Origin: a virus
DNA: 37,390 bases
IMG/VR virus record: IMGVR_UViG_3300045988_171491
Location: 1 to 37,390 of that record
Strand: one strand, 5' to 3'
Below, one piece after another: positions 3,630-37,390 of this stretch. Positions within the stretch are counted from its first letter, which is position 1, and the number at the start of each line of letters is the position of its first letter. Made by a program: the position numbers and the translations under genes. Under the pieces are notes generated by a model that worked only from the letters and a program-made list of their open reading frames with translations, had not been told where the DNA came from and ran no database searches.

Positions 3630-4619
3630 ATGACTGAAAGCCAAGAAACATTTCCGGTGGTGAATAAGCCGCTGTCTGCGTCGCAGTGGGAGTCGGTGAC
3701 ATCCGGGCTTGGAAACGGGGTTATCGACGCTGGTGACGGCGGTTACCGGCTGTCTTTTGATAATGCGACGGATACGGTGACGGTGGCACCGCCTCTGGTG
3801 TGGCCCCGGTACGCGCACTCTGCGGTCGCCGGGTACTATCACCGGCTCTATGAGGCGGTGAAGCTGTCGGTGCCGCCGGTAACGATATTCACCGTCTATA
3901 GTGTGGTGCTCTGTTACGACCCCGTGAAAGCTGACACTAAACCCGTAGAGCTGAAGGTCGTTAAAGGCGCACTGGATCAGTCAAACGGCAAGAAGTATCT
4001 GGTGCTGGCCACAATTGAGCGTGAGCCGAACCGGATTCTGACGGATTCCAGGATTATCAAGCAGGCTCCGCGCATCACACCCGCCGCTGAGGTGGAGACC
4101 TGGGAAGCCCTGCCCATCCCCGAAAACTTCCTACTTGGCACGCTCATGCACGTGCAGTCCACCGCATCGGTCTACCGGAATTCCAAGGTGAACGGCAGGT
4201 TGCAGTGGGTGCGTATCAGTGGAACCACTGCCCAAAATACGCTGAGTATGCCCGGGTGGCGGCTTCGGTCTAATATCCCCGGCGGGATGCTCATCACCCC
4301 TACCCCTGACGGGTGGAAATGCGAATTTCACGGGCAGTTCATCCGCGATGCCTTCGATTACACGGTGGGCGACCAGTGGTCTGACGTGGGGGAATTCATT
4401 CCGCCCCGGTTCCGTCGAGACGAATTTAGCGATATTCAGGTCGCTGGCACCTATTTCGACCCGAATACCGGTGCGGTGCCTGTCACCTACACGGTAAATT
4501 TTCAGACCGGTGTTTTGTCGGTGCGGATGCCCCGCGGGCAGTCTCTTTTTATCCGCAAGGAAGGCGCATTGAATCTGTCGGTGACCTGGGTGTCGAAGCG
4601 TGAAAGGGCTGAATCCTGA
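3630..4619 (+). CDS. Minor tail protein
   Basis: AGGAGAAAAAGAGG RBS region upstream of the ATG; 329 aa within the tail-tip gene block. Confidence 0.45.
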   Translation: MTESQETFPVVNKPLSASQWESVTSGLGNGVIDAGDGGYRLSFDNATDTVTVAPPLVWPRYAHSAVAGYYHRLYEAVKLSVPPVTIFTVYSVVLCYDPVKADTKPVELKVVKGALDQSNGKKYLVLATIEREPNRILTDSRIIKQAPRITPAAEVETWEALPIPENFLLGTLMHVQSTASVYRNSKVNGRLQWVRISGTTAQNTLSMPGWRLRSNIPGGMLITPTPDGWKCEFHGQFIRDAFDYTVGDQWSDVGEFIPPRFRRDEFSDIQVAGTYFDPNTGAVPVTYTVNFQTGVLSVRMPRGQSLFIRKEGALNLSVTWVSKRERAES

Positions 4620-8273: not shown

Positions 8274-8672
8274 ATGATTGACCTGACCACTGTTGTGGTC
8301 GCGGCGGTCTCTGCGATGAGCGGCACGGGTCTGACAGCGTTTTTCACCTGGTGGGGAAATCATGAGTCTACCGGGGCGGCGCTGGAGAAAGAGCGGCTGA
8401 ATGCAACACGGCAAGAGCTGGGCGATTTACGGCTTGAGGTGAAGGCGCTGCGGGCTGAGCTTCATGCCGTTGAGGCCCGCTCACGCACGGACAGAATGGC
8501 TGCGATGCTGTCTGCAGCTCATATTTCGCGGCTGGTCGCCCATATTGATGCGGGTGACCCGCCGCCCGCGCCGCCGCTGCCGGTTGAGCTCGCTGACTAT
8601 ATGCGCACCATGTGGGATGATCCGCAGGGTGCGCATTCTGCTGAGGGTGGGCGGGCACCACCCACCGCGTGA
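8274..8672 (+). CDS. Membrane-anchored coiled-coil protein in the lysis cassette
   Basis: ATG directly follows the upstream TAG. It has an N-terminal hydrophobic helix (LTTVVVAAVSAMSGTGLTAFFTWW), then a coiled coil. It lies immediately upstream of the endolysin. Confidence 0.45.
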   Translation: MIDLTTVVVAAVSAMSGTGLTAFFTWWGNHESTGAALEKERLNATRQELGDLRLEVKALRAELHAVEARSRTDRMAAMLSAAHISRLVAHIDAGDPPPAPPLPVELADYMRTMWDDPQGAHSAEGGRAPPTA

Positions 8673-8776
8673 GCATTCTTTTTCTGAAAAATTTTTTTGA
8701 TTATACGCATACTGTGAGGGCCTGCGCCGTGATGGTGCGGGCCCTTTGGTGTGCACCTGATTATTGGAGGTGTGCT

Positions 8777-9370
8777 GTGTCTCAGTACGAGGATATTACG
8801 CACTATAATTCGCCTGAAAATTCTTACACCCCGGCGAATCGCACAGTTGATGAGATTGACACTATTGGCATTCACCATTGGGGTGCGGATGGGCAGAAGT
8901 TTGATGGGGTGTGCCGCTTCTTCGAGTCTGGCCCTGGCACTAGCGCCCATTTCGTGGTGGAAGCTGGTAAGTGTGCTCAGCTGGTGGATATTAAGGACAT
9001 CGCGTGGCATTTTGGGAATTGGCCCGCGAATCAGCGCTCTATTGGCATTGAGTGCCGCCCGGAAATGAGCCCCGAAGATTTTGAGACCGTCGCCCAGGTG
9101 ATCGCGGACATCGAAACCTACTACAACAAGAGCTTCTACATTCACGGGCATAAGGACTTTTTCAATACCGCCTGCCCGGGCCGCTGGTACGGCCAGCTGG
9201 ATCGTCTGATTGACCGGGTGAATGCAATCAAGGAAGGCCGCTCTGATGGGGCACCGGCCCCGCTTCCTAAGGCTGAGGTGAACCGTATCCGGGCTGAGTG
9301 GGAAAAGCTGGGGGCTGCGATTAGCCAGGCGCAGGCGGCGCACGTGTCGCTAGGAAAGGAGCTGGGCTAA
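8777..9370 (+). CDS. Endolysin, N-acetylmuramoyl-L-alanine amidase (amidase_2/PGRP type)
   Basis: Motifs IGIHHWG, SAHFVV, IAWH, SIGIE, HGHKDF..TACPG. GTG 8777 lies 6 nt after GGAGG. The track ORF start at 8669 is probably too long. Confidence 0.85.
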   Translation: MSQYEDITHYNSPENSYTPANRTVDEIDTIGIHHWGADGQKFDGVCRFFESGPGTSAHFVVEAGKCAQLVDIKDIAWHFGNWPANQRSIGIECRPEMSPEDFETVAQVIADIETYYNKSFYIHGHKDFFNTACPGRWYGQLDRLIDRVNAIKEGRSDGAPAPLPKAEVNRIRAEWEKLGAAISQAQAAHVSLGKELG

Positions 9371-9372
9371 AA

Positions 9373-9630
9373 ATGAATGCTCTATCGTGGTTATCTCCAA
9401 ATGTGCGGGCGTGGCTCTATCGCGTAGCGCTGGTTGTCATGCCGCTGCTGGTTGCCTATGGCTTGCTGGATGGGTCGAAGGTCACTTTGTGGGCTGCGCT
9501 GGTTGGGTCTGTGCTGGTGCCTGGTGTGGCCGCCGTGCACACGCCTACCGATGCGGCAGCCCCGGATGAGCCGGGCGGGCCGGTTGATGAATCTGGTGCC
9601 CCGTACCACCCGAAGCATCTAGACGAATAG
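9373..9630 (+). CDS. Holin (two-TM actinophage type)
   Basis: 85 aa with two hydrophobic helices (AWLYRVALVVMPLLVAYGLL / LWAALVGSVLVPGVAAV) and a charged C-terminus. It lies directly after the endolysin. Confidence 0.65.
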   Translation: MNALSWLSPNVRAWLYRVALVVMPLLVAYGLLDGSKVTLWAALVGSVLVPGVAAVHTPTDAAAPDEPGGPVDESGAPYHPKHLDE

Positions 9631-9636
9631 GCTGCT

Positions 9637-9680
9637 AAAAAATGGGCCCCTCACCATTACGGTGAGGGGCCCATTTTTTG
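9637..9680. terminator. Bidirectional intrinsic terminator between the convergent late (+) and accessory (-) transcription units
   Basis: Perfect 12-bp stem GGGCCCCTCACC/GGTGAGGGGCCC (9644-9655 / 9661-9672), flanked by an A-run upstream and a T-run downstream. Confidence 0.85.
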
Positions 9681-9802
9681 TACCCCGATATTTCGGGGAG
9701 AAATTTTAGTGTAACCAGAAAACCGGTTTATCCCCACGTGTGTGGGGAGCAGAACCAGATGAAAACGTACAAACGGTTCATCCCCAGTGGCCTGGGGAGC
9801 AT
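9675..9802 (-). CRISPR. cas-less mini-array of type I-E-like CRISPR repeats (2 good + 1 degenerate unit; 21- and 20-nt spacers)
   Basis: Minus-sense 29-mers are ATGCTCCCCAGGCCACTGGGGATGAACCG (9802-9774) and CTGCTCCCCACACACGTGGGGATAAACCG (9752-9724). Each has a 6-bp stem, a tetraloop and an 8-nt tail. The tail ATAAACCG equals the E. coli I-E handle. A degenerate unit lies at 9703-9675. Confidence 0.55.
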
Positions 9803-9806
9803 ATTT

Positions 9807-10766
9807 TTATTCACCTGCCTCTTTCTTTGTGATGCTCATGAGGTTTGGGTATGATGCAAGCTCTACAGTGGTGTACAGGTCTGGTTCCCATTTGTCCCCG
9901 AGCCCTAAAAAGTCCAGGATTTTTTCTTCAGCCCATGTGCTCTGCAAAATATTAGCTGTTGCTGACGCTTCGTCTGCGGTTCCTTCTTCGCCAGATAGGA
10001 ACATGAGCCCAAGCTCTATAGATTTTTCTAGCCCAAGGATTTTAGATATTTCTTCCCAGTCTTCAGGGTCAGTTTCCGATACGGCCACAGCAGAATAGGT
10101 GTAGTTTTCTTCTTCGCCGTAGTAACTGGACATGTCCTGAAGGATCTTGATCCGCTCTGCGGCCGCGAGTTCCTTCACCACTGATTGCTGCTGCTCAGTG
10201 AGCGGGGGAAGCGGTAGCGTCACCTGCAAATCCCACCCTGTTTTATCGTTCACATATTCTAAATACGCGATCATCCGCATGTCCGTTACCATGAGCGGCT
10301 GAGTGAACAGCTCCCGTACCTCTACAGTCTCTAGGTACTGTTTCCAGGTATTCCCGTAGTCCTCTTGCAGCTCTTCAATCTCTTGCAGGGAATAGACTTC
10401 TCGCCGTGGGCAGGTCTCATCACACCCAATGCTTACACTAGGGTCGTCCCACCAGTATGTGTAGAGTGAATCCTCTTCAATAGGCTCAAATGAGTTAGCG
10501 TCTGCCCATTTTGTTTTTGATAAATCCCAGAAATTACGGAACAAAGCCTCATCATTAGTCTTCTCAAGACACGTAATAATGTTGTCTGCGGAGATGGATT
10601 CTACGTCGGTGCTGCCGAAGACTTTTTGGATGGTTTCTTTGGCCCCTAAGATGCGGTAAGTGTTGGTAGTCAATTGGTCTTCTCCTTGCTGCTCATCGGT
10701 GAGGTTTTTAGCGAGGGATTCGATATACCGGCGCTGTGCTTCTGTAGAGTTGTTGTTGCGTGCCAT
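9807..10766 (-). CDS. Acidic protein A1 (319 aa), shared N-terminal module MARNNNSTEAQRRYIESLAKNLTDEQ
   Basis: RBS AAGGAG lies before the ATG. The product is strongly D/E-rich. Its first 26 aa are identical to 11952..12566. The region has lower GC than the structural genes. Confidence 0.8.
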   Translation of the reverse strand: MARNNNSTEAQRRYIESLAKNLTDEQQGEDQLTTNTYRILGAKETIQKVFGSTDVESISADNIITCLEKTNDEALFRNFWDLSKTKWADANSFEPIEEDSLYTYWWDDPSVSIGCDETCPRREVYSLQEIEELQEDYGNTWKQYLETVEVRELFTQPLMVTDMRMIAYLEYVNDKTGWDLQVTLPLPPLTEQQQSVVKELAAAERIKILQDMSSYYGEEENYTYSAVAVSETDPEDWEEISKILGLEKSIELGLMFLSGEEGTADEASATANILQSTWAEEKILDFLGLGDKWEPDLYTTVELASYPNLMSITKKEAGE

Positions 10767-10920
10767 TTTCGGCTCCTTAGATTGTTGCTTCCCGGGCCTG
10801 TTGGCCTTTTGGCAGGTTCAGGGTTTCCGTTCCCTCCCTACTCTTTAAGTATATAATATATATAATTCAGATGCCAACTTAAAACAGGGTTTTTAAAAGG
10901 ATTTTCAGGTGATTTATTTC
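10691..10920 (-). repeat. Promoter-leader-N-terminus repeat, copy 1
   Basis: About 230 bp nearly identical to 12491-12722. Its promoter and leader part is also shared with 13618-13757. Confidence 0.9.
10848..10877 (-). promoter_or_regulatory. Promoter P1 (TTGGCA-N18-TATACT, minus sense)
   Basis: -35 is the complement of 10872-10877 and -10 is the complement of 10848-10853. A conserved ~75-80-nt leader runs to the ATG at 10766. Confidence 0.6.
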
Positions 10921-10950
10921 ATAATCTATGCCGTAAAGTATGGCTATGGG

Positions 10951-11085
10951 TTATTTTTCACTGTACCCGGCACGGCATAACCAATCATCTAGCGAGGGGC
11001 TGGCTGCTGGCAAGTCTTCACGCACTGGGAGCGCAACCACCAGGCGGCTAATAGCATCTGCTGGCGTATATGATTTACTCGACAT
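10951..11085 (-). CDS. Small ORF, 44 aa (MSSKSYTPADAISRLVVALPVREDLPAASPSLDDWLCRAGYSEK), below the track cutoff
   Basis: ATG at 11085 is preceded by AAAGGAAAATATAAA (RBS) and a TATAAT box. Stop is at 10951-10953. Confidence 0.35.
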   Translation of the reverse strand: MSSKSYTPADAISRLVVALPVREDLPAASPSLDDWLCRAGYSEK

Positions 11086-11139
11086 TTTATATTTTCCTTT
11101 GATATTATAATTTTGTGTATCTTTCGGCTATGTTGTTTC

Positions 11140-11208
11140 CCGCACCATTGCGGTGCGGTGCGGCACCCCGTTTCCGACCGGTTTTACCGGGTAGGGGTGC
11201 CGCTTTTT
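11140..11208 (+). terminator. Double hairpin with T5 tract on the + strand (orphan terminator / 3' end of a candidate sRNA)
   Basis: Hairpin A is CCGCACC/GGTGCGG (11140-11158). Hairpin B is GCGGCACCCC...GGGGTGCCGC (11160-11203), followed by TTTTT (11204-11208). Confidence 0.5.
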
Positions 11209-11243
11209 ATGTGCATTTATTCACTGGGTGTTATTTCTACCCG

Positions 11244-11627
11244 CTATTGCTGCCCAAAATGGCTGACTGCTTCTTCGGAATATTCAACATACCCTTTAAC
11301 GTTTTCAACAGTGAGGGGCATGGGCTGGGTGTGAAGCTGATCTGCCTCTGCGTGGTGGCATCCTAGCCCAACGGATTTGAAAGCGCGGAAGGTCTCTTTA
11401 TCTTCTTCGACTAGATATTTAGGTTCCCAGTCGGTAAACCATTCCCAGCCACCACTCGGATTTCCCGCGGGGGTTACGAAATCATGTGCGCGGCGCGTGA
11501 ACTCGATCATCCAGTCACTATGCGCCCAGTCTACGATTTCTTGCAGGGTGCCTGTGAATTCGGCGGTAGTTTTTTCTCCCGAATATTTATTACCTTCAAT
11601 GACTCGGGCGGTGTACTGTTGTTCCAT
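11244..11627 (-). CDS. Hypothetical protein (127 aa, MEQQYTARV...)
   Basis: The internal ATG at 11627 has RBS AAGGATAAGGAA and lies just after the upstream stop (11639). The track start at 11675 would overlap the upstream gene. Confidence 0.6.
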   Translation of the reverse strand: MEQQYTARVIEGNKYSGEKTTAEFTGTLQEIVDWAHSDWMIEFTRRAHDFVTPAGNPSGGWEWFTDWEPKYLVEEDKETFRAFKSVGLGCHHAEADQLHTQPMPLTVENVKGYVEYSEEAVSHFGQQ

Positions 11628-11638
11628 TATGTTGTTCC

Positions 11639-11887
11639 TTATCCTTGGAATTTGCGTGCAAAATTTTTGAGGCATTCATTCATGGTGCGCCCGCTAGAGT
11701 ATGCGCGCTGCCACCTGTCCCACTGGGTAGCCATCATGTCTGCGTATGAGGGGAATAAGGTTGCGAACCATTGCCCTTCGCATGGGGTGGGGCCGCCTTC
11801 GCTGCGTTCCATTGTGCCTACTCGCTCGCCGTCTAACATGTTGTAGTGGTAGCCGCTGCGGACTCGCTTGATTTTGAAGTTTTTCAT
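11639..11887 (-). CDS. Hypothetical protein (82 aa)
   Basis: RBS AAAAAGGAGC lies before the ATG at 11887. It is co-oriented in cassette 2. Confidence 0.6.
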   Translation of the reverse strand: MKNFKIKRVRSGYHYNMLDGERVGTMERSEGGPTPCEGQWFATLFPSYADMMATQWDRWQRAYSSGRTMNECLKNFARKFQG

Positions 11888-11908
11888 TGGGGTGCTCCTT
11901 TTTGGGTG

Positions 11909-11934
11909 CCCCGCCCGCCGGTGGGCGGGGCTTT
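11909..11934. terminator. GC-rich hairpin after the acidic gene A2
   Basis: 8-bp stem CCCCGCCC/GGGCGGGG (11909-11916 / 11923-11930). T-rich flanks occur only in + sense. Confidence 0.4.
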
Positions 11935-11951
11935 GGGTTGAGGGGTTTTAC

Positions 11952-12566
11952 CTACCAGGGCATGTGAATATATACAAGGTCTTCGCGAGTGATACCGAAG
12001 CGATCTAGCAGCTCATTCTCACACCGGGTGTATGGCTCGGATTCGTCCGCACGGTCACCGTTTTTCCCGTCATCGAATGCGGACATATCGTCGAGGTCTT
12101 GGTTTCCGAAGACAAAACCGAGGCTGTCGAAATCACCCAGGTCTTCGGGCCATGAAACTAAAAGTTTGGCGATATAAGTTTGTTCTTCTAGCTCCCACTC
12201 GATCATTGCTTTAGCCCCAGCGTTAAGGTATTCCCTGAGGGTATTTTTTGCGTCTTCATAGCTCACGCCTTCTTCGAAGCGGGCGGTGAAGTCCTGCATT
12301 TGCTGGTTCTCTTCGTCTTCGTGCTCGTCGGTGGCGATGAGAGAATTTACGTATTCCTCATCCCTGAGCAGTTCAATGAGGGTAGAGGCGTATGCCTTGG
12401 TGAGGTGGCTCAGCCGCTGGTTGCGGGTTGCCCGGTGATCATGGGCTTTGTCTGAGGCTGACCCGGTTTTGCGGATTGCCTGGCTAAACTGCTCATCGGT
12501 GAGGTTTTTAGCGAGGGATTCGATGTACCGGCGCTGTGCTTCCGTGGAGTTATTATTGCGTGCCAT
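11952..12566 (-). CDS. Acidic protein A2 (204 aa), same N-terminal module as A1
   Basis: The first 26 aa and about 78 nt are almost identical to 9807..10766. The C-terminal part is unrelated and very D/E-rich. Confidence 0.8.
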   Translation of the reverse strand: MARNNNSTEAQRRYIESLAKNLTDEQFSQAIRKTGSASDKAHDHRATRNQRLSHLTKAYASTLIELLRDEEYVNSLIATDEHEDEENQQMQDFTARFEEGVSYEDAKNTLREYLNAGAKAMIEWELEEQTYIAKLLVSWPEDLGDFDSLGFVFGNQDLDDMSAFDDGKNGDRADESEPYTRCENELLDRFGITREDLVYIHMPW

Positions 12567-12722
12567 TTTAGGGCTTCCTTTCGGTTGTTGTTTCCCGGGC
12601 CGGTTGGCCTTTCGGTAGGTTCGGGGTTTCCGTTCCCTCCCTACCCTTTAAGTATATATTATATATAATTCAGATGCCAACTCAGAACGGGGTTTTTGGG
12701 AGGGTTTTTAGGTGAATTATTT
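12491..12722 (-). repeat. Promoter-leader-N-terminus repeat, copy 2
   Basis: Aligns with 10691-10920 with few mismatches. Confidence 0.9.
12651..12680 (-). promoter_or_regulatory. Promoter P2 (TTGGCA-N18-TATACT)
   Basis: -35 is the complement of 12675-12680 and -10 is the complement of 12651-12656. The hexamers and spacing match P1 and P3. Confidence 0.6.
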
Positions 12723-12920
12723 CACATCTTTAGTGGGGAATGAGTTCCACCAGTCCATGATTTGTTCCCTAGTCCAGCCCCCGGTTTCCCGCTTTTTCCC
12801 CTTGATAATGACGGCGGGCGCGGGTAGCTCATGCTTTTCTTCGCGCTTGTAGATGGTGATTAGCTTCTGCCCTAAAATTTCGGGGAACATTGACTTTGCG
12901 AAGACCTCTTCAGACTGCAT
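12717..12920 (-). CDS. AlpA/excisionase-family HTH protein (67 aa), Aca-like position
   Basis: Start at 12920 follows RBS AAGGAAAAAATA. The pattern ...LITIYKREEKHELPAP...GGWTREQIMDWW parallels 15322..15546 (VQTIYERGRRGGLPP...GGWFPGTIDAW). Confidence 0.55.
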   Translation of the reverse strand: MQSEEVFAKSMFPEILGQKLITIYKREEKHELPAPAVIIKGKKRETGGWTREQIMDWWNSFPTKDVK

Positions 12921-12948
12921 TATTTTTTCCTTTCTTAGTGGGGTGGTG

Positions 12949-12986
12949 CCCGCACCCTTTAGGTGGGTGCGGGCGGGTTTTGGTTT
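12949..12986 (+). terminator. Hairpin with T-tract in + sense inside the leftward island
   Basis: CCCGCACCC (12949-12957) pairs with GGGTGCGGG (12965-12973), followed by CGGGTTTTGGTTT. Confidence 0.45.
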
Positions 12987-12988
12987 AT

Positions 12989-13333
12989 CTATACGCCGTA
13001 GATTTGGCGCATCAGGTAAGCCAGACGGGGTGCGCTGTACCGTGAGCACCATTCCCGCAGCTCTTCCGATTCCCCGTTGCTGCCTACTAGCAGATAGGCG
13101 CTCGTGCCCTGCGGCAGAGGGCTGATATGACCCTCAGCGATTAGGCGGGTGAGCCACCCGGCGCTCAGGTCACTGTATTTAGCGGTACGGTATGCGGCGG
13201 GAATGTCGCCATCTGCATCATTTACATCAGCTGCGTTGTCTGCGGTATCCGCATCATCTGCATCTGCTTCCTTGGCTTCAATGTTCTTGAGGTTGCGTCG
13301 TATGCGCCGCAGGTGCATTCTTCGCCTTCCCAT
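12989..13333 (-). CDS. Protein with acidic D/A-rich N-terminal region and HTH-like C-terminus
   Basis: Contains EAKEADADDADTADNAADVNDADGD, then YSDLSAGWLTRLIAEGHISPLPQG..YLL (excisionase/MerR-like HTH pattern). The start is uncertain, and it overlaps 13222..13620 by ~110 nt. Confidence 0.45.
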   Translation of the reverse strand: MGRRRMHLRRIRRNLKNIEAKEADADDADTADNAADVNDADGDIPAAYRTAKYSDLSAGWLTRLIAEGHISPLPQGTSAYLLVGSNGESEELREWCSRYSAPRLAYLMRQIYGV

Positions 13334-13620
13334 TCACCAAAGCAGCCCTTTGCGTGCTCCACGTAATCTTCGTCCTCTTCCGGCTCAGTGTCGATAGGCA
13401 GGCCGTAGATGTCCTTGCCTACGTAATCTTCGGGGCGGATGATGTGCCCGATAGGGCCTTTGAGGGTGTCAATCATAAGGCTTGCGTCGCCCTTGGTGAG
13501 GGTCTCCATTGAGGTGGCACCGATGTGCTCAAGGACTTTTGCGGTCTGCTCGGCGGTGAGTTCCCAGTCGGCAATGAGCTTGTTGATGTACTTTGTCTGT
13601 GCTGCGGTTGCGAGTGCCAT
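13222..13620 (-). CDS. Protein A3 with related N-terminal module (MALATAAQTKYINKLIADWELTAEQ...)
   Basis: First gene after promoter-leader copy 3. It has the motif AQxxYIxxL...TAEQ...ASLMIDTL and an acidic C-terminal half. Confidence 0.7.
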   Translation of the reverse strand: MALATAAQTKYINKLIADWELTAEQTAKVLEHIGATSMETLTKGDASLMIDTLKGPIGHIIRPEDYVGKDIYGLPIDTEPEEDEDYVEHAKGCFGEWEGEECTCGAYDATSRTLKPRKQMQMMRIPQTTQLM

Positions 13621-13757
13621 TTTAGGGTTTCCTTTCGGTTGTTGTTTCCCGGGCCGGTTGGCCTTTCGGTAGGTTCAGGTTTCCGTCCCCCCCCTACCCT
13701 TTAAGTATATAATATATATAATTCAGATGCCAACTCAGAACGGGGATTTTGGGGAAA
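13618..13757 (-). repeat. Promoter-leader repeat, copy 3
   Basis: The leader and promoter align with copies 1 and 2. The coding part is not homologous at the DNA level. Confidence 0.85.
13704..13733 (-). promoter_or_regulatory. Promoter P3 (TTGGCA-N18-TATACT)
   Basis: -35 is the complement of 13728-13733 and -10 is the complement of 13704-13709. Confidence 0.6.
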
Positions 13758-13765
13758 AATTTTAA

Positions 13766-13794
13766 GTGACCTCCATTACACCCATGAGGTCACT
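13766..13794 (-). terminator. Hairpin terminating the int transcript
   Basis: GTGACCTC (13766-13773) pairs with GAGGTCAC (13787-13794). In minus sense it is followed by TTAAAATTTTT. Confidence 0.45.
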
Positions 13795-14051
13795 GAGGGC
13801 ATGAGACTCAAGGGGTGAAAATCTAGCACACGGACACATTGCGGATACATTGAAAGTGATTTTTCCTCATGTATCCTGATACTTAGACAGGTAAAAACCT
13901 TGAAATTATACGGGAAATTCAGGTGTCCTTATTTATCCTAATATACTTATTTATATTGTCTGCATATACTTTATTCATGTAAAAAACCTTGATATATCAA
14001 GGAACTTGGGGTGAGTATAAAGGAAATACGGACACATTGCGGATACATTGA
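13795..14051. other. Putative attP region (AT-rich, repeat-laden) next to the integrase
   Basis: The 24-bp direct repeat ACGGACACATTGCGGATACATTGA occurs at 13830-13853 and 14028-14051. GTAAAAA(A)CCTTGA motifs occur at ~13889 and ~13978. The core is AT-rich. Confidence 0.45.
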
Positions 14052-15173
14052 TTATCCCCCGAAAACTTCCAGAATCGACCGCGCATCAGGTGCCAAATCA
14101 TTCTGCCGCCAATAGTGCGCACGCAAAACAGCCTCAGTGTTTCCGAGCTGGGCGCTCGCAGCCGCTGCGTTTGTGTTGTTTGCTAACATAGTAGCCACGG
14201 TTGCGCGAATCATGTGCGGATGGACATTCTCAAATTCCGTTCCCTTTAATTTGCTGTTCCAACGTGCGCGGAAGGCATCGGGAGAAAGCAGCCCGTTTGC
14301 TCTTGGTGAGCCTAGAAATATTGGGCCATGCCTATGATCTTTGCATGTCTCAGATGCGTATTTTTCAAGAGCACGCACCGCGAATTCGGGCAGGTAAAGG
14401 GATATATTTTTGCCGGATTTGCGGTGTTCTTGCCGCTTTGTGTATTTTCCGACGCCGATAATTGTCCCGCTTAGATGGACGATTACCCCGGCCGGGGTTT
14501 GTTCTATATCTTCCCACCGTATAGCGAGGATTTCCCCGATGCGCCCACCTGTGGCGAGCATAAGCTCAAATGCTAAAGCGTTATCCCCCGTAAGTATTAA
14601 GCGCATTCGCTCAATTTCATCAATTGATAATATTTTTATCTCTTTTTTAGGGGCGCTAGGATTTTTTATGCTATCTACAGGGTTGCGTGCTATCGCATCA
14701 TAGCGTTCAGCGGTTGCAAATATCATTTTCAGTATCATTCGAGCACGGATAGCGGCAGATACACTACGTTCTGCTGATAGTCGCTTAATGAATAGAGTTA
14801 ATACTCCGGTGGTGCATTCTATTATTTGAAGTTGTCCAATTATCGGTATGATTGTTTTTTCTACACTGTATTTGTAAGAGATGATTGTGTTATATGGGCG
14901 CGGTTTTTCTGAGTTCCATTCTTCCCACCACAGTTCAGCAGCTTTTTCTAGCGTTGAGTGTGGTGTGAGGGTTTTTCCTGCTGTTTGGGTGATTTGAGCC
15001 GCGTACTCCCGCAAAGCGCGTTCCGCGCCTGCTTTGGTGCGGTGCGTGCGCTGCAGCTTACGCCGCCGCCCGTCCATTCCCCGGTAGTAGGTGATTGCGC
15101 ACCATGTGCCCGCAGCGGTTTTGGAGATGAATATTTTGCCGTGTGTGCCTAGCGGCGTGCGTGCCCTACCCAT
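14052..15173 (-). CDS. int: Tyrosine integrase
   Basis: Catalytic signature: ATGGRIGE (Arg), HMIRATVAT (H-x-x-R), LGNTEAVLRAHY (Tyr). 373 aa. Confidence 0.9.
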   Translation of the reverse strand: MGRARTPLGTHGKIFISKTAAGTWCAITYYRGMDGRRRKLQRTHRTKAGAERALREYAAQITQTAGKTLTPHSTLEKAAELWWEEWNSEKPRPYNTIISYKYSVEKTIIPIIGQLQIIECTTGVLTLFIKRLSAERSVSAAIRARMILKMIFATAERYDAIARNPVDSIKNPSAPKKEIKILSIDEIERMRLILTGDNALAFELMLATGGRIGEILAIRWEDIEQTPAGVIVHLSGTIIGVGKYTKRQEHRKSGKNISLYLPEFAVRALEKYASETCKDHRHGPIFLGSPRANGLLSPDAFRARWNSKLKGTEFENVHPHMIRATVATMLANNTNAAAASAQLGNTEAVLRAHYWRQNDLAPDARSILEVFGG

Positions 15174-15321: not shown

Positions 15322-15546
15322 TTAGGATTCTGATGTGTGAGACGCTTTCTTTCGCTTGTATACCCTCATTTCCTTATCCCAGGCGTCTATGGTGCCTGGG
15401 AACCAGCCCCCGCCCCCGGTTGGGGTTTTCAGATCGTAGGGTGGGAGCCCGCCGCGCCTTCCTCTTTCATAGATGGTCTGGACATGTCTTCCCAGATAGG
15501 ACGCAATGTCAAATTGTGTAATCAGGATGAGTGGCTTCTCGGGCAT
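15322..15546 (-). CDS. Excisionase/AlpA-family HTH protein
   Basis: 74 aa with QFDIASYLGRHVQTIYERGRRGGLPP...WFPGTIDAW. It lies upstream of int in the same orientation. Confidence 0.6.
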   Translation of the reverse strand: MPEKPLILITQFDIASYLGRHVQTIYERGRRGGLPPYDLKTPTGGGGWFPGTIDAWDKEMRVYKRKKASHTSES

Positions 15547-15562: not shown

Positions 15563-15748
15563 CTATTTTTCTGCGCGCTTATTTTCCCGCTTGCAGATAG
15601 CTAAGGCTTTCACAGAGAACGCCATTGAGAAGCCAGCGCACGCGAAAGACAGGCTGTCCAGAGCCCGGATAATGATGGTGTCGCTGGTAACCCATGAGGC
15701 GATTAGAACAACGGCTGCCACCGCCGCCAAAACTATAGCAATTTTCAT
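15563..15748 (-). CDS. Small two-TM membrane protein (61 aa)
   Basis: Hydrophobic segments IAIVLAAVAAVVLIASWV and FACAGFSMAFSVKALAI. It sits inside the lysogeny operon. Confidence 0.5.
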   Translation of the reverse strand: MKIAIVLAAVAAVVLIASWVTSDTIIIRALDSLSFACAGFSMAFSVKALAICKRENKRAEK

Positions 15749-15756
15749 TATTTTCC

Positions 15757-16152
15757 TTACCTTATTCCGCTATTTAGTTTCATGCTGAGCTTGAGAACAT
15801 TGAGAGTGACCCCCAACTCAGCAGCCAAATCCTCTAGGTTGTTGTTGCCCCAGCCAGTGCGTAGGCTTTTGAGAGCGCACGGATCAATAAGTCTTTTGGT
15901 GGCGATCCGGTCGCATTCCCGCTCGGTGGCGGAAACAGCAGCCGGGTGCATGTTCCCAGTGCCCGGTTCGTGCCCAGATTCCGCGTGCACGATTTCATGG
16001 GCTAGGACGCAGCGGGCGGCGGGGTAGGCTAGGCGCGGGGACAGCATAATGACCCCGCGGCCCAGGTAGAGCCCCAGAATATCGTCCCCGGGTTCTTGGG
16101 TGAGCACGCGCATCCCGAGCTCATCCGCGTGACGCCACGGATTGTAAAGCAT
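15757..16152 (-). CDS. ImmA/IrrE-family zinc metallopeptidase
   Basis: HEXXH motif (LAHEIVHAESGH). 131 aa, downstream of the XRE repressor. Confidence 0.8.
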   Translation of the reverse strand: MLYNPWRHADELGMRVLTQEPGDDILGLYLGRGVIMLSPRLAYPAARCVLAHEIVHAESGHEPGTGNMHPAAVSATERECDRIATKRLIDPCALKSLRTGWGNNNLEDLAAELGVTLNVLKLSMKLNSGIR

Positions 16153-16311: not shown

Positions 16312-16704
16312 TTATCCCCAGTCGCCGCCACTTTCAGGGTCACCGCGTTTGGCGGCGAGCGCGTAACCATCCTTCCTGAGCTGCTGGCTTTGGGTGATAA
16401 GGGCCTGGATTTCCGGGTCGTTGGCGTAGGCGTGCTGTTGTTGTTGTTCGCGGGCGGCGGCGGTTTCGGCGCGGGCGATGATTTGGCTGGGTTTTTCTCC
16501 GAGTGCGTTGGCTATTTTTTCGAGCTGGGAGAGGTTGAGAGTTGAGGTGTCCCGGTAGATGGTTTTTGAGATGGTGGATTGGCTCACGCCGCTTTTGTCG
16601 CGCAGCCGGTATTGGCTGAAACTGCGGCGGGCAATGAGGCCCCGCAGCTCGGCGTGTATGGCCTTGACTAGGGGCGTTATTTCTATTGTTGTCGATCGTG
16701 CCAT
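16312..16704 (-). CDS. XRE/CI-type repressor
   Basis: HTH FSQYRLRDKSGVSQSTISKTIY...NLSQLEKIANALG. ATG 16704 lies 6 nt after a TATAAT box. The track start at 16929 is too far upstream. Confidence 0.8.
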   Translation of the reverse strand: MARSTTIEITPLVKAIHAELRGLIARRSFSQYRLRDKSGVSQSTISKTIYRDTSTLNLSQLEKIANALGEKPSQIIARAETAAAREQQQQHAYANDPEIQALITQSQQLRKDGYALAAKRGDPESGGDWG

Positions 16705-17308: not shown

Positions 17309-17548
17309 GTGTCGGACGCTCTCGCAGCAGTAGACGCGGTTTTCGCTGAGCAAGACACTCTCACCGCCGATGACCTGCACGGACGGGTTGAAGAGCCAGA
17401 CCACCCGAACTGGTGGGGAGCGCTCTTCAAAACACCAGAATTCAAGCAAACCGCCCGCTGGTGCGGCGAATGCAAAAACTCGACCCGAAAAGGACGCGCC
17501 GGGTCAATGATCAGGGTATGGCGCCGCCGCCAACTCACAGAAAGGTAA
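17309..17548 (+). CDS. Hypothetical protein
   Basis: 79-aa ORF in the early operon. No recognised motif. Confidence 0.45.
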   Translation: MSDALAAVDAVFAEQDTLTADDLHGRVEEPDHPNWWGALFKTPEFKQTARWCGECKNSTRKGRAGSMIRVWRRRQLTER

Positions 17549-18444
17549 AAGAATTGAGCACCAAGTACTTGTTCCCAGTGCTGGAAATCACCGAAGGGCT
17601 AACCGCCAACGAAAAACTGGTTTTGATCGCGCTCGCTGATATGGCCGATGATAAGGGGATTTGCTGGCCCGCGATGAAAAGCCTGGCTGGTAAATCAATC
17701 TGCTCAAAACGTACTGCGCAGCGGGCCATTAAGAACTTCGAAAAAATGAATTTGCTCACAAAATATGAGCGGCCTAATGACGATAAACGGAACGATTCGA
17801 ACTTATATCAGCTGCATTTTATGGAGCTGCTGCGCATGGGAAATTCCGAGCTAGTGGGTGACACACAGTCACCCAGTGGGCGACACACAGTCACCCACAG
17901 GGGTGACACACAGTCACCCAGTGGGCGACACACAGTCACCCAGGTGGGTGACACACAGTCACCCGAACCTATCAATAAAGAACCTATCAGGGGAACCTAT
18001 CAAGAACCTATCAAGGGAACCCGCGGCGCCGCCGCCGATGCGACCGGGGCCACAACGAAGCTTTTCGATGAATTCCGGGCAGCCTACCCGACTTCCCGCC
18101 GCGGCACCGAAGTGAAACAGGCCCGCGCACAATTCGCCGCCGCCGTGAAAAAAGTAGACGACCCCCAGGTCATCATCGCCGCCGCCGCGAAATACGCCAC
18201 CCACTGCAAAGTGCAAGGCACCGAACCGAAATACATCAAGAGCATGTGGCGGTGGTTACGTGACGAGCGTTACTTGGATGAATACGCCCCCGGCGCCGGG
18301 CAGTTCATGTCCCATGCATCCCGTGTACGCGCCCAAATGGGAGTCCACTCACCATTTTTCCCCGAAGCCACCCGCACCGAATCCCAGCAGCAGCTAGAGC
18401 CCGCCGCCCGCCCTCAAGAAGTTTTGGAGGTCACAGCCCGATGA
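17518..18444 (+). CDS. Replication initiator / replisome organiser (N-terminal winged-helix) containing ori iterons
   Basis: LTANEKLVLIALADMADDKGICWPAMKSLAGKSICSKRTAQRAIKNFEKMNLL is a winged-helix pattern. Start is ATG 17518 or TTG 17554. Internal iterons are present. Confidence 0.6.
   Translation: MAPPPTHRKVKELSTKYLFPVLEITEGLTANEKLVLIALADMADDKGICWPAMKSLAGKSICSKRTAQRAIKNFEKMNLLTKYERPNDDKRNDSNLYQLHFMELLRMGNSELVGDTQSPSGRHTVTHRGDTQSPSGRHTVTQVGDTQSPEPINKEPIRGTYQEPIKGTRGAAADATGATTKLFDEFRAAYPTSRRGTEVKQARAQFAAAVKKVDDPQVIIAAAAKYATHCKVQGTEPKYIKSMWRWLRDERYLDEYAPGAGQFMSHASRVRAQMGVHSPFFPEATRTESQQQLEPAARPQEVLEVTAR
17860..17964. repeat. Five iterons GACACACAGTCACCC (palindromic GGTGAC-ACACA-GTCACC core), 22-23-bp period
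   Basis: Copies start at 17860, 17882, 17905, 17927 and 17950. Confidence 0.9.
17966..18013. repeat. Four direct repeats AACCTATCA
   Basis: Copies lie at 17966, 17981, 17994 and 18005, directly after the iteron set. Confidence 0.85.
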
Positions 18445-23566: not shown

Positions 23567-23639
23567 GTGCGGGTAGCTCAGCCGGTAGAGCAGCGGTCTC
23601 CAAAACCGCAGGTCGCAGGTTCGACCCCTGCCCCGCATG
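23567..23639 (+). tRNA. tRNA-Trp (anticodon CCA)
   Basis: Manual cloverleaf: acceptor GTGCGGG/CCCGCAT (G1-U72), D arm GCTC-AGCCGGTA-GAGC, anticodon arm GCGGT-CTCCAAA-ACCGC, T arm GCAGG-TTCGACC-CCTGC, discriminator G. No CCA is encoded. Confidence 0.85.
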
Positions 23640-23907
23640 CGCCTGCAGTTCAGACTGTAAAGCATCCACATCACCCAGTGCGGCCCCGCCGTTGGGGCAC
23701 AACACACTATCCCTAAGGCAACTCATCACATGCAGAACCCTTACCAGGCCCCACCCATCAGAGAACGCCGGGCACCGGCCAAAACCTACCGAGACCCAAC
23801 GGGTGATTCGGCGACCCGAAACGCTGACAAGGATAAGAACAAGCGGAAGACCCGCCGCCCCCGGCGCAGCGTGGAACTACGCGGACAAGTGATAGAGGTA
23901 CCTACAG

Positions 23908-34652: not shown

Positions 34653-37390
34653 ATGGGTACAGCCGTTGAGTTAGCAACTGGGTATGTGACTTTGGCCGTG
34701 GAGACCTCCCACTTGGCGCGGCAGATCGCGTCCGCGTTCGGTGGGGCCGGTAAGGTCGGTGCCGCCGCCGGGCGTGATTTAGGCCAAAACATGGCTAAGG
34801 CTTTTGATGAGTCGAAGCCGGTAGACATGAAGGCGCTAGAGCAGCGGGTGTCTGACGCGCAGGCCCGGATGGCGCAGGCCGTGGAAATCGGTGCGCGGAA
34901 GCGGGCGGCGGCGGCTTCGTCTATTGAGCAGGCTGAGCTGAAACTGTCCGCTGCGCAGGACAAGCATTCTGCGCGGGTCACGGCGATGCAGGCGGCTGAG
35001 GAGCGCCTAGCGTCGGTACGGTCTTCGGGGTCTGCTACGCAGTCGCAGGTTGCTGCGGCTGAGGCGCAGCTGTCGAATGCGCGGGCGGCGGTTTCCACGT
35101 CATTAGCGGGCGTGCGTGCCGCTGAGGATAGGGTGACTAGCGCCCGTCAGCGGTACAGTTCGGTTTCTCGGGCGGCTGTCACGGAGATCAGCGCGCACCA
35201 TACGGCGCTGAAATCTGCTCAGAGCGCGCTTGATTCGACGCGCACGTCGCAGGATGAGCTCACGGGGGCGATTGACCGCACTAGTGGGCGGTTCGGCAAG
35301 ATAGGGGCGCTGTTCCGCCGGGGCTTTTCGGGCATGGCGTCGCAGGCGCGGGCCGGGTTTAAAGACGCATTCAAAAGCGCTGATGATGAAGCGCATAGCG
35401 CCGCGAAATCCTCAGCATCAGTATTTGGTGGCGTTTTCAAGAAGGCTCTGCTGGCTGGTGGCGGGCTTTTCGCCGGTGTCTCAATCTTTAACGGGCTGAA
35501 AGATTCGATTAGCGCCGCCGGTGATATTGAGCAGTCCGTGGGCGCGGTCGATTCCGTCTTCAAACAGTCCGCGGGGCAGATGCATTCGTGGGCGCAGAAT
35601 TCCGCTAAAAATCTAGGTATTTCCGCTAACGCCTATAACGAGTTGGCGTCTGTGCTGGGTGCGTCGCTGAAAAACGGCGGCACAAGCATGGATCAACTCG
35701 CAGGCAAAACAAACGACCTAATCACCTTAGGCGCTGACCTGGCAAGTATGTACGGTGGCACCACGAAAGAAGCGATTGAGGCTATCTCGGCGGCGCTTCG
35801 CGGTGAGACAGACCCAATCGAGCGCTACGGCATCAGCATCAATGACGCAGCGCTATCAGCGAAAGCCCTGCAGGAGGGTATCCAGAAATCCGGTGGGGCT
35901 TTCACCACGCAGCAGAAGCAGCTTCTCACGCAGAAGCTTCTATTTGAGCAGTCTGCGGATGCTCAAGGGAACTTTAACCGTGAGTCTGATACTTACGCTC
36001 ATAAGATTCAGGTGGCGCAGGCGTCCTTCGAGAACCTGAAAGTCACCATTGGTGAGGCTTTCCTGCCTGCTGTCTCAGCGGCAATGGACATTTTTTCGTC
36101 GAAGGTAATGCCCGTCATTGAGACGGTCGCGGGCGGTATCCGTGCCTTCGCAGAGGCATGGCGAAATTTTGACGGGGATGTCACCAGCTCTGGTTTCGCC
36201 GGGTGGATGGAAGAATTCGCGTTTGCGATGCGCACCTTGTACGAGAAGGTGAAGGCGTACTTCGTCGATTCCATTCTACCGGTGCTGCGTGATGATGTGT
36301 TTCCGGTTCTTAAAGACATTGGCAAAGGCATCAAAGATGTTTTCGACGGCCTAGTCGGTATTAAACCGAACGAAGATACGAATAAATTCCTGTACGATTT
36401 CGGTGAGAATCTTGGCAAGATCATTAAATTCGTTGTCGATAACGTCAATATCTGGGGGCCTTTCGCAGAAGGCATTCTGATTTCTGTTGCCGCATTCAAG
36501 GTGTGGCAAGCCGCTATGACGGTCTCCACAGCGGCTACAGCGGCCTGGCAGGCTATTACTAGTCTCCAAACAACAACAATGTTCGGCCTTACGTTGGCGA
36601 CGTGGGGCTGGCTCGGTATTTTCGGTTTGATTATTGGCGCGCTCATTTTGGCGTACAACAACCTTGATTGGTTCAAAAACATCATTGATGTTGTTTTCCA
36701 ATTCATAGGTGATGTTATCCGCAATTTTGTGGATTGGTTCAACGGCAATGTGATGCCGATTATCATCGCCGCGCTGCAGGCTATTGGCAATTGGTTTGTG
36801 GGCTTGTGGAACGATTACGTCAAACCGGCGTGGGACTGGATCATGTCGCTAATCGGCGCTTTCGTCGATTGGTTCGTAGGGGTTTATATCCCCCGCGTCC
36901 AGGAAGCATTCCGCATTTACGGGCTGATTTTCACCTGGCTCTACGAGAATATCGTCAAACCCGTTTTTGATGGTGTGGTGACCTTCATCAAGGCTGCAAT
37001 TGATGTTATCGCGGCGGTATTCACATGGCTCTACGAGTCAATTATTCTGCCGGTGTGGACGGCTATAAAGGTCGCTGTTGCTGTCGTGCTCGCTGTCCTG
37101 CTCACGCTGTGGGACGGCGTCGTATGGATGATCCAGAATGTTCTCGGCCCGGTCTTCCAATGGCTGTATGAGTATGTCATAAAGCCTGTATGGGAGGGTA
37201 TCCAGGCCGCCATTCAATTCGTCTTCGACTGGTGGAATAACACCTTCATCCCGGCCTGGAACCTTTCTATGAAGGCTTACGGGGAGCTATTCAATTGGCT
37301 GTATGAGAACATCATCAAGCCCGTGTGGTCTTGGATTCAGAGTGCGATCCAGGCTGTTATCGACTGGTGGAATAATACGCTGGTTCCCGC
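34653..37390 (+). CDS. Tail tape measure protein, N-terminal part (continues at 1..1607)
   Basis: ATG 34653 lies 8 nt after GGGAGG. It has a coiled-coil N-terminus, a TP901-type core (ISANAYNELASVLGASLKNGG...ETDPIERYGISIND), TM helices and W-rich repeats. There is no stop before the window end. Confidence 0.9.
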   Translation, partial: MGTAVELATGYVTLAVETSHLARQIASAFGGAGKVGAAAGRDLGQNMAKAFDESKPVDMKALEQRVSDAQARMAQAVEIGARKRAAAASSIEQAELKLSAAQDKHSARVTAMQAAEERLASVRSSGSATQSQVAAAEAQLSNARAAVSTSLAGVRAAEDRVTSARQRYSSVSRAAVTEISAHHTALKSAQSALDSTRTSQDELTGAIDRTSGRFGKIGALFRRGFSGMASQARAGFKDAFKSADDEAHSAAKSSASVFGGVFKKALLAGGGLFAGVSIFNGLKDSISAAGDIEQSVGAVDSVFKQSAGQMHSWAQNSAKNLGISANAYNELASVLGASLKNGGTSMDQLAGKTNDLITLGADLASMYGGTTKEAIEAISAALRGETDPIERYGISINDAALSAKALQEGIQKSGGAFTTQQKQLLTQKLLFEQSADAQGNFNRESDTYAHKIQVAQASFENLKVTIGEAFLPAVSAAMDIFSSKVMPVIETVAGGIRAFAEAWRNFDGDVTSSGFAGWMEEFAFAMRTLYEKVKAYFVDSILPVLRDDVFPVLKDIGKGIKDVFDGLVGIKPNEDTNKFLYDFGENLGKIIKFVVDNVNIWGPFAEGILISVAAFKVWQAAMTVSTAATAAWQAITSLQTTTMFGLTLATWGWLGIFGLIIGALILAYNNLDWFKNIIDVVFQFIGDVIRNFVDWFNGNVMPIIIAALQAIGNWFVGLWNDYVKPAWDWIMSLIGAFVDWFVGVYIPRVQEAFRIYGLIFTWLYENIVKPVFDGVVTFIKAAIDVIAAVFTWLYESIILPVWTAIKVAVAVVLAVLLTLWDGVVWMIQNVLGPVFQWLYEYVIKPVWEGIQAAIQFVFDWWNNTFIPAWNLSMKAYGELFNWLYENIIKPVWSWIQSAIQAVIDWWNNTLVP
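37336..37390. repeat. Terminal overlap, copy 2 (identical to 1-55)
   Basis: Exact identity with the window start. Confidence 0.95.

Follow-up and report, generated by a model that had tools for sequence, protein, structure and literature searches.

The 37,390-nucleotide window analysed here (IMG/VR record IMGVR_UViG_3300045988_171491), which is identical in sequence to a 37,396-bp human oral metagenome scaffold, encodes a temperate siphovirus-type phage with terminase and virion genes. Between its amidase and holin genes and its integrase gene lies a minus-strand accessory block of three cassettes, headed by genes A3, A2 and A1, the last of which is followed by a miniature CRISPR array (Table 1). 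Beyond the block are an attP-like region and genes for a tyrosine integrase, an Xis-like helix–turn–helix (HTH) protein (15322–15546), an ImmA-like protease and an HTH repressor (16312–16704); the block lies on the same strand as int and the repressor gene. Its GC content is 0.47–0.51 across 10–14 kb, as against 0.56–0.63 in the structural genes. Both this lower GC content and the position between the lysis genes and attP/int had been reported in a first-pass annotation made from the sequence alone, and our gene calls and base composition agree with it. Each cassette begins with a copy of the same ~150-bp segment, here called the module (P3, P2 and P1), which runs up to a start codon and combines a predicted promoter with an mRNA leader.

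The module is a genuine repeat. Its 35-nt promoter core, TTGGCATCTGAATTATATATAWTATATACTTAAAG, recurs exactly at 10843–10877, 12646–12680 and 13699–13733, with a match in 0 of 100 shuffled sequences, and a 28-nt leader segment, AAAGGCCAACMGGCCCGGGAARCAACAA, matches at 10782–10809, 12585–12612 and 13639–13666, where none is expected by chance. The three near-identical minus-strand copies listed in the first-pass annotation are thus confirmed. P2 and P3 are 94.9% identical over 137 nt, and P2 and P1 are 88.6% identical over 140 nt. P1 and P2 share an additional 84 nt (93% identity) that comprises the region from the Shine–Dalgarno (SD) sequence to the ATG together with the first 26 codons. A promoter scan returned TTGGCA-18-TATACT with a score of 10/12 at all three sites, so that the hexamers proposed earlier stand, as do the SD sequence and ATG at the end of each module.

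Table 1. Features of the accessory block and its boundaries (positions in the window; IR, inverted repeat; ORF, open reading frame; aa, amino acids; pI, isoelectric point; TSS, transcription start site)
Feature	Position	Strand	Description
Amidase and holin genes	8669–9630	plus	lysis genes
Accessory block	9.8–13.8 kb	minus	
Bidirectional intrinsic terminator	9637–9679	both	strong; A6, 15-bp GC stem-loop, T6; perfect
Type I-E-like CRISPR mini-array	9681–9800	minus, sense	repeat 9774–9800; 23-nt spacer; repeat 9724–9750; 23-nt spacer; degenerate repeat 9681–9700
A1 chimaera	9807–10766	minus	319 aa; codons 1–26 copied from A2, then a 287-aa acidic protein with its native SD and TTG start (AAGGAGAAGACCAATTG, 10671–10687)
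Module P1, extra segment	10689–10766	minus	78 nt of A2-derived coding sequence, duplicated along with the module
Module P1	10689–10922	minus	IR-like 10909–10922; core 10848–10877; predicted TSS ~10841
Module P1, leader		minus	5′ hairpin 10811–10842; mini-hairpin 10795–10806; CAA tract 10781–10794; SD to ATG 10764–10780
44-aa ORF	10951–11085	minus	56 aa in L038 and L040, ending at a TAA inside module copy Y
Putative fourth module derivative, promoter-less	11086–11224	minus	IR GTGAATAAATGCAC 11211–11224; strong hairpin 11160–11203; small hairpin 11142–11156
Fourth derivative, 3′ part		minus	GGGAAACAACA..CCGAAAG 11121–11141; AT-rich stretch with TATAAT and SD ahead of the 44-aa ORF
127-aa acidic protein	11244–11627	minus	86% identical to the 136-aa protein after module copy X in L035
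82-aa basic protein	11639–11887	minus	absent from close relative L032
A2	11952–12566	minus	204 aa, pI 4.5; DUF3072-like N-terminal domain and ~115-aa C-terminal domain
Module P2	12564–12725	minus	IR GTGAAATAATTCAC 12712–12725 (holds the stop codon of the 67-aa gene); phased A-tracts; core 12651–12680; predicted TSS ~12644
Module P2, leader		minus	5′ hairpin 12614–12645; mini-hairpin 12598–12609; CAA-rich tract 12584–12597; SD to ATG 12564–12582
67-aa basic protein	12717–12920	minus	conserved partner of A3
A3	12989–13620	minus	one 210-aa gene in relatives, 132-aa and 114-aa ORFs here; DUF3072-like N-terminal domain; pI 4.3
Module P3	13618–13794	minus	IR and T-run, terminator-like, 13755–13794; −35 to −10 core 13704–13733; predicted TSS ~13697
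Module P3, leader		minus	5′ hairpin 13668–13698; mini-hairpin 13652–13663; CGGGAAACAACAAC 13638–13651; SD to ATG 13618–13636

Read 5′ to 3′ on the minus strand, each module opens with a short IR of the GTGA-N6-TCAC type, followed by two phased, UP-like A-tracts about 11 bp apart. The 18-bp spacer between the hexamers is nearly all A/T, and a 13-bp palindrome, TATATA-W-TATATA, overlaps the −10 hexamer TATACT. Transcription is predicted to start ~7 nt past the −10, which places a G-rich hairpin (hairpin 1; a GGUAGG..CCUACC stem with an inner GGG/CCC) within 0–2 nt of the mRNA 5′ end. A 4-bp mini-hairpin (hairpin 2; GGCC-NNNN-GGCC) comes next, then an unstructured CGGGAAACAACAAC tract and a strong SD sequence (GAAAGGA or AAGGAG) 8–9 nt from the ATG, giving a leader of ~80 nt. 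All three promoters are consensus-level predictions. A fourth element, which looks like a promoter-less derivative of the module, keeps its 5′ inverted repeat and its 3′ small hairpin with GGGAAACAACA. The 10-bp stem of this element (11160–11203) shows one compensatory A-U to G-C change between relatives, and in contig L040 it contains G.U pairs that are functional on the sense strand only. It is intergenic and strongly structured (−48.9 kcal/mol for 163 nt), lies upstream of the 44-aa ORF and has a counterpart at 8440–8595 of contig L035.

Pattern scans and protein-anchored look-ups, used to gather relatives of the module, recovered it from no phages other than a narrow clade of oral-metagenome contigs (L003, L004, L012, L015, L032 and L033, and also L016, an error-ridden long-read contig that we left out of the variation analysis). 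Three scans of IMG/VR with exact and degenerate module patterns gave no match, the genome collection gave a single match, by chance, and a metagenome scan gave six loci, of which three, including L016, are real. The −35 and −10 hexamers, like hairpin 1, are retained in each of the ten distinct module variants obtained from related contigs. Four variants affect the interior of hairpin 2, all of them in its loop, and three natural P3 variants have lost this hairpin by a clean deletion.

Over its first 40 nt, the predicted transcript folds better than mononucleotide shuffles (z −2.1 to −3.3), and the SD and start region of the window leaders is predicted to be mostly unpaired; this layout of a 5′ hairpin and an open SD sequence is also present in 9 of 12 leaders from related phages and elements. 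When pairs were counted over seven distinct leaders (13 pairs), 94% of the cells were paired and two pairs were altered on one side to G-U. The substitutions in P1 had been described in the first-pass annotation as compatible with G-U pairing, which is true in part: one creates a U.G pair and one an extra A-U pair, but a third abolishes the outermost pair of hairpin 1. On these variant counts and the deletions of hairpin 2, a leader structure is compatible with the data rather than demonstrated, and hairpin 2 is dispensable. Three candidate features were rejected on inspection: a −1 frameshift signal at G GGA AAC, because this site is non-coding and lies downstream, not upstream, of the hairpin; a G-quadruplex, because there are only three G3 tracts; and Cas6e-type recognition of hairpin 2, because it has no similarity to the mini-array repeats.

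At P1 the module heads a chimaeric gene, the A2 5′ end joined to a 287-aa protein gene, and not the A-type gene that had been annotated there. Homologues of A1 form ~90 protein clusters (287 aa, N-terminus MTTNTYR), and at their loci the TTG start is preceded by AAGGAGAAGACCAA. The identical string is kept in the window A1, at 10671–10687, directly after the 26 A2-derived codons, and the P1 copy is therefore a duplication of P2 plus the A2 5′ end that lies in frame on a pre-existing gene. The gene behind a module also varies between close relatives. In L015, which is a near-identical phage, a different 63-aa gene stands behind P1, and the swap is bounded by the SD sequence and the CRISPR mini-array. 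Because of this swap, the A1 capture chimaera and the absence of the 82-aa gene from L032, cargo exchange at the modules by homology is supported, in line with the earlier suggestion that the repeats provide homology for cassette shuffling. The genes headed by the module comprise A2, A3, the A1 chimaera, the 63-aa gene of L015, and 136-aa and 75-aa genes in L035.

The last two genes belong to a group of islands (contigs L035–L040) with the gene order A3-like, 70-aa, X, 136-aa, structured element, 56-aa, Y, 75-aa. Both X and Y, as found in L035, are copies that have diverged from the window module (nhmmer E 1e-15 and 1e-23; 63–73% identity), and −10/−35-like hexamers persist in these ~70%-identical copies. 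The proteins that flank them are 73–86% identical to the 67-aa and 127-aa proteins of the window, and X and Y sit in the P2 and P1 slots; compared with L035, the window contains an insertion behind P2, made up of A2 and the 82-aa gene, and has the A1 chimaera behind P1. As X and Y occupy matching slots in the gene order, the reiterated-promoter arrangement predates this phage lineage. In the same comparison the window copies are 79–89% identical to each other, as against 73% for X and Y, and this near-identity reflects either homogenisation or recent re-duplication. The possibility, raised in the first-pass annotation, that the repeat is only a recent local duplication thus applies to the near-identity of the copies, which is lineage-specific, but not to the arrangement, which is older. 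No phage or conjugative hallmark gene lies within 7 kb of an L035-type island, which leaves the class of island unassignable. One island copy carries an inserted IS605-type OrfB/TnpB (Cas12f-like) gene (L037, 1505–2632); the island otherwise consists of small ORFs without family matches.

The A1-like 287-aa family and A3-like proteins are found mostly in conjugative elements, which contain an integrase, ParA, an SSB-like gene and a 1650-aa TrwC relaxase. These elements have an 87-nt promoter module of their own (TTGCGA-17-TACAAT), the copies of which are 99% identical and stand ahead of A3-like, 226-aa and A1-like genes. A tblastn search with the A1-like protein against plasmids gave no match. 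One conjugative-element contig, L022, has a second reiterated promoter–leader family, with four copies of 89 nt (10411–10911, 14764–14911 and 15694–15879) and a leader of 49 nt that runs on into a shared N-terminal coding sequence, ATGACCACCTCACAACAAACACAG; the design is the same and the sequence unrelated. In sister phages of the Caudovirus D_HF5_3 lineage, an A2 homologue stands behind yet another promoter, TTGTAT-17-TATAGT, which is itself present in three copies, with a short G-rich hairpin just past the −10 in two of them. The copies in D_HF5_3 (L001) lie on the minus strand at 4275–4317, 8825–8867 and 9266–9308 and read TTGTAT/TTGAAC-17-TATAGT followed by ATTAGAT, or by ATTGAGT in the third copy. 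Each spacer has its own inverted repeat (CTTGTAT..ATACAAG, TGTATA..TATACA and GAACTG..CAGTTC), which looks like an operator with co-varying arms.

The lead cargo proteins are very acidic (pI 4.1–4.5, net charge −22 to −38). A3 is a single gene of 206–216 aa in all relatives. One T is absent from the window near 13293 (within 13286–13304) relative to L003 and L004, which splits A3 into two overlapping ORFs; the A3 and acidic/HTH genes that had been annotated separately are the two parts of this one broken gene. The A1 chimaera is also split in L032 and L033, into 67 and 245 aa. The C-terminal ~115 residues of A2 also stand alone as proteins of 118–120 aa, and in one A2 relative (P0109) an A3-type N-terminus is joined to the A2 C-terminal domain. 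Neither A2 (17.8 bits, E 0.003) nor full-length A3 (15.3 bits, E 0.018) reaches the DUF3072 (PF11272) gathering threshold of 27.5 bits; one homologue in nr carries the DUF3072 name. An AlphaFold model of A2 (pLDDT 73) had no fold match in the PDB (best E 0.065, TM < 0.3). The 67-aa protein is 73% identical to the 70-aa protein adjoining the A3 homologue in L035. It had been called an AlpA-like HTH protein, but it has no Pfam or other family match and resembles only the Xis-like protein of the window, over 18 residues, so that the HTH assignment is weak.

Terminator-like structures bound the block as a whole. Upstream of P3 there is a 9-bp inverted repeat followed by a T-run (13755–13794), and in L003 one pair of this hairpin becomes a G-U wobble that still pairs in RNA. 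At the other end, the strong bidirectional terminator closes both the accessory block and the plus-strand lysis operon, and faces the holin gene. Between the cassettes no minus-strand terminator was found, these two block-level structures being the only ones. Because no terminator separates the cassettes, the 4-kb block is probably one operon with reiterated internal promoters. Two GC hairpins inside the block (11908–11931 and 12947–12975) have T-runs on the plus strand only, and could keep late/lysis-operon transcription from running on, as antisense, into the integrase gene and the accessory block. The bidirectional terminator has a sub-threshold Rfam match to tsr31 (33 bits, gathering score 50).

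As the first-pass annotation had indicated, the P1 cassette includes a CRISPR mini-array. It is type I-E-like, lies in sense orientation directly after the A1 stop codon and before the strong terminator, and has full repeats GCTCCCCAGGCCACTGGGGATGAACCG and GCTCCCCACACACGTGGGGATAAACCG with unusually short 23-nt spacers. The array is kept in L015 and L032, even where the upstream gene differs. Among the closest known systems are RNA anti-CRISPRs, the solitary repeat units and mini-arrays of viruses (Camara-Wilpert et al. 2023, PMC10651486). The P1 unit resembles them in ending in sense I-E-type repeat mimics (…GGGGATAAACCG) downstream of a strong promoter-like element and near candidate anti-defence genes. 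It differs in having 2.5 repeats with 23-nt spacers behind a protein gene, as opposed to a solitary repeat with its own promoter. The mini-array is a candidate RNA anti-CRISPR or CRISPR-RNA-like regulator.

On balance, we think it probable that the module is a portable expression unit for co-expressed accessory genes, with a function that is probably in establishment or anti-defence. It would act as a housekeeping-sigma-type double-strand promoter and give strong, coordinated transcription of the cassettes; the 5′ stem-loop would stabilise the mRNA, and the CAA-rich (A/C-rich) stretch would hold the ribosome-binding site open. Known precedents for these two leader elements are the 5′-terminal stem-loops that stabilise mRNA, as in the ompA 5′ untranslated region, and CA-rich translational enhancers, as in the CAA-rich omega leader. 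The likeness (a 5′-end hairpin, then an unstructured A/C-rich tract and a strong SD sequence) is architectural only and concerns a predicted transcript. Copied ahead of successive cargo genes, the module would bring about their joint, high-level expression. It would spread and stay uniform by recombination, and the sequence identity of its copies would supply the homology for cargo exchange. The P1 copy would have taken 26 A2 codons along and landed in frame on a gene from a conjugative element, and P1 would also drive the CRISPR-repeat mini-array as part of the same transcript. Expression of the cargo would begin immediately on DNA entry, for establishment or anti-defence, and would possibly continue in the lysogen.

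The proposed use of the cargo in establishment or counter-defence follows from the acidic proteins, the families shared with conjugative elements and the CRISPR-repeat RNA, by analogy with known systems (PMC11541004, PMC10651486). Repeated Frpo promoters head anti-defence islands in the leading regions of plasmids (Samuel et al. 2024, PMC11541004). As in those islands, copies of one promoter type head successive small genes on the same strand, and A1-like and A3-like cargo families occur in conjugative elements near ParA, SSB and relaxase genes, behind a reiterated element-specific promoter. Unlike Frpo promoters, the modules resemble ordinary double-strand promoters and have no Frpo-like fold, and no cargo protein matches an anti-defence family. 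Provided that the modules do act as promoters, the very acidic proteins and the CRISPR-repeat RNA behind them form a co-expressed set and thereby a short list, open to testing, of candidate genes for establishment or anti-defence in a host group that has been little studied.

Several observations weigh against this proposal. The promoters were called from consensus matches in which the spacer is 18 nt long. The folding energies of the full leaders are ordinary (z −0.85, −1.9 and −1.6 for the three copies); in the seven distinct leaders, 0 of the 13 pairs changed on both sides; and RNAalifold found no consensus structure across nine diverse leaders from different lineages. Set against their orthologous counterparts in L032, the modules show no more conservation than the adjacent genes, and for that reason purifying selection on them is not demonstrated. 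Searches with the cargo proteins against Pfam, PHROGs, NCBIfam, PADLOC and the PDB were empty or below threshold, and because the proteins match no family, the term anti-defence derives from context and charge only. Finally, the frameshifts in A3 in the window and in A1 in L032 and L033 may represent real cargo decay or assembly error.

The alternative that survives best, although we regard it as rather less than probable, is that the cassettes are morons expressed in lysogeny. Their promoters would then be constitutive in the repressed prophage, and the cargo would serve host benefit, prophage defence or superinfection exclusion instead of counter-defence at entry. Morons are accessory transcription units of the type found in HK97 and HK022 (Cumby, Davidson & Maxwell 2012, PMC3594210), and much of the block conforms to their definition. 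It consists of extra genes compared with relatives (A2 and the 82-aa gene are inserted relative to the L035 order, the 82-aa gene is missing in L032 and the P1 cargo differs in L015), its base composition deviates from that of the structural genes, it has its own promoter-like elements, and it lies at the attP-proximal end beside the lysis genes, adjacent to int and on the strand of int and the repressor gene. Moreover, no operator common to the modules and the immunity region was found, so that the phage repressor need not shut the promoters, and a phage mini-array could equally target competing phages. The anatomy is thus compatible with lysogen expression, the classic moron reading (PMC3594210), to the same degree as with expression at entry. 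Three points count against it. No cargo protein matches any PADLOC defence model. The cargo families occur near ParA, SSB and relaxase genes in conjugative elements, which form no lysogens. And the cassettes lack a terminator per unit: unlike morons, the three units share one near-identical promoter–leader and have no individual terminators, which makes them one block with reiterated promoters. In either case the finding is a previously undescribed, yet unsurprising and fairly ordinary, case of promoter-carrying moron-type cassettes.

A further possibility, somewhat less likely again and additive to an expression-module function, is that a dimeric protein regulates the repeats as DNA, with the 13-bp palindrome that overlaps the −10 as its operator, or with the GTGA-N6-TCAC repeat centred near −73 as an activator site of the CRP/FNR family (GlxR-like). 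TATATA-W-TATATA is present in all copies, its centre being the only variable base, and every window copy, as well as X and Y of L035, has the upstream inverted repeat, with both arms changed in Y (CGTGA..TCACG). The D_HF5_3 promoters carry different inverted repeats at the same spacer position. However, the AT tract may be a mere melting-prone spacer. When the upstream repeat was compared with a class I CRP/FNR site (TGTGA-N6-TCACA near −61.5, −71.5 or −82.5), all copies had (T/C)GTGA-N6-TCAC(C/G/T) 29–32 bp upstream of the −35, a distance that varies between copies; the motif overlaps stop codons of the upstream ORFs and, in relaxed form, is frequent genome-wide (GTGA-N6-TCAC with one mismatch, 36 matches as against 11 expected). 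A search of the immunity region for a shared operator or AT-rich words found nothing convincing, and no similar site lies there.

It is unlikely that the leader is a specific cis-regulatory RNA, through which one trans-acting factor would control all three cassettes after transcription starts. Such a leader might bind a protein or an RNA, might work by attenuation or antitermination of the put/nut kind, or might be a translation signal like the start-associated sequence (SAS) and its extended form (ESAS). In favour of this reading, four sites of the window, D_HF5_3-type phages and L035 all have a hairpin with GGGAAACAACA after it; the promoter-less fourth element keeps the layout, including a big hairpin with a compensatory A-U to G-C change and sense-only G.U pairs; and the GC-rich hairpins without U-tracts inside the cassettes are possible targets of read-through. 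The absence of compensatory changes and of a cross-lineage consensus structure counts against this reading, and hairpin 2, besides being deleted in three natural variants, is not maintained in X and Y of L035. Rfam 15 at its gathering scores matched only a tRNA and no leader family, and at E ≤ 1 over 9500–14100 it gave two sub-threshold matches, neither to a leader family. For these reasons the structured regulatory leader of the first-pass annotation is unproven.

The SAS of Cluster K mycobacteriophages is a 13-bp sequence, GGGATAGGAGCCC, that lies 3–7 bp from the start codon and occurs in 11–19 copies (Pope et al. 2011, PMC3203893). The module shares with SAS and ESAS that it is an actinophage repeat just upstream of non-structural gene starts, in one orientation, sometimes preceded by an inverted repeat and associated with varied gene families. 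It differs in being a 150-bp unit that includes a promoter, in three (+1) copies. The Cluster K motif itself is absent, as its one match in the window, with two mismatches at 33935, is at chance level.

Equally doubtful is an extension of the expression-module proposal in which the module would be a dedicated platform for gene capture and expression, akin to an integron that lacks its integrase. Concerted evolution would keep it uniform within each element, and its position would be conserved in phages as well as in other mobile elements of oral Actinomycetota. At its SD-proximal edge, phages and conjugative elements would exchange counter-defence cargo, including CRISPR-repeat RNAs and acidic proteins with a DUF3072 domain, and a specific factor of the host or the phage would read its hairpin-GGGAAACAACA leader.

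We find it improbable that the repeat is a non-functional scar of recombination, that is, a recent segmental duplication without promoter or leader activity in a block transcribed from elsewhere. The near-identical copies are limited to a narrow clade, P1 brought coding sequence along as a blind duplication would, and the modules are not more conserved than the flanking genes. Yet each copy ends exactly at an SD sequence and ATG, the −35 and −10 are invariant in ten variants and persist as similar hexamers in the L035 copies, the module heads several different cargo genes, and independent lineages share the design of one promoter for several cassettes with unrelated promoter sequences. Frpo-like single-strand promoters, in which single-stranded DNA folds to make the −35 and −10 double-stranded as in plasmid leading regions, are suggested by cargo families common to conjugative elements, whose leading regions use such promoters (PMC11541004), but we consider them very improbable here, given that the portal and terminase genes denote a tailed double-stranded DNA phage and that DNA folds of both strands of the three copies were mutually inconsistent and of no unusual stability (z −2.55 to +0.85), with the hexamers unpaired with a complementary arm.

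The module is otherwise an ordinary kind of phage regulatory repeat that opens no long-standing question. The A1 chimaera and the L015 swap show how a phage takes in a foreign gene, namely by setting a copy of the phage promoter–leader ahead of it, and both oral actinobacterial phages and conjugative elements carry cargo behind reiterated promoters of their own. The most useful by-products are a clean gene-capture chimaera, cross-element sharing of cargo behind element-specific reiterated promoters, and the list of candidate anti-defence genes.

The source phage can be placed by its terminase, which is nearest to those of Arthrobacter phages (42% identity), and by its sole related GenBank phage, Caudovirus D_HF5_3 from saliva, for which published work predicts an Actinomycetota host. 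Together these point to an oral actinobacterium as host, and we infer that it is Rothia-like. The contig is complete and circularly assembled; its first 55 nt are identical to its last 55 (1–55 and 37336–37390), which is consistent with an assembly overlap of a circular or terminally redundant genome. Around the contig junction, an 11-mer is repeated at 135-nt spacing (27–37, 162–172 and 37227–37237), which hints at a repeat close to the site of packaging.

An exact 24-bp direct repeat, ACGGACACATTGCGGATACATTGA (plus strand), occurs at 13830–13853 and 14028–14051 and brackets the region from P3 to the end of the integrase gene; its two copies are probably arm-type integrase-binding sites of attP. 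AAGTATAT is present twice in this 24-bp-repeat region, as well as once per module. Within an early ORF of 343 aa (17413–18444), five tandem 22-bp units, AGTGGGTGACACACAGTCACCC, at 17853–17964 each contain an inverted repeat and look like iterons of a replication origin. The window also encodes a phage tRNA-Trp (CCA) at 23567–23640 that shares ~90% identity across 60 nt with the tRNA-Trp found in Gordonia phages.

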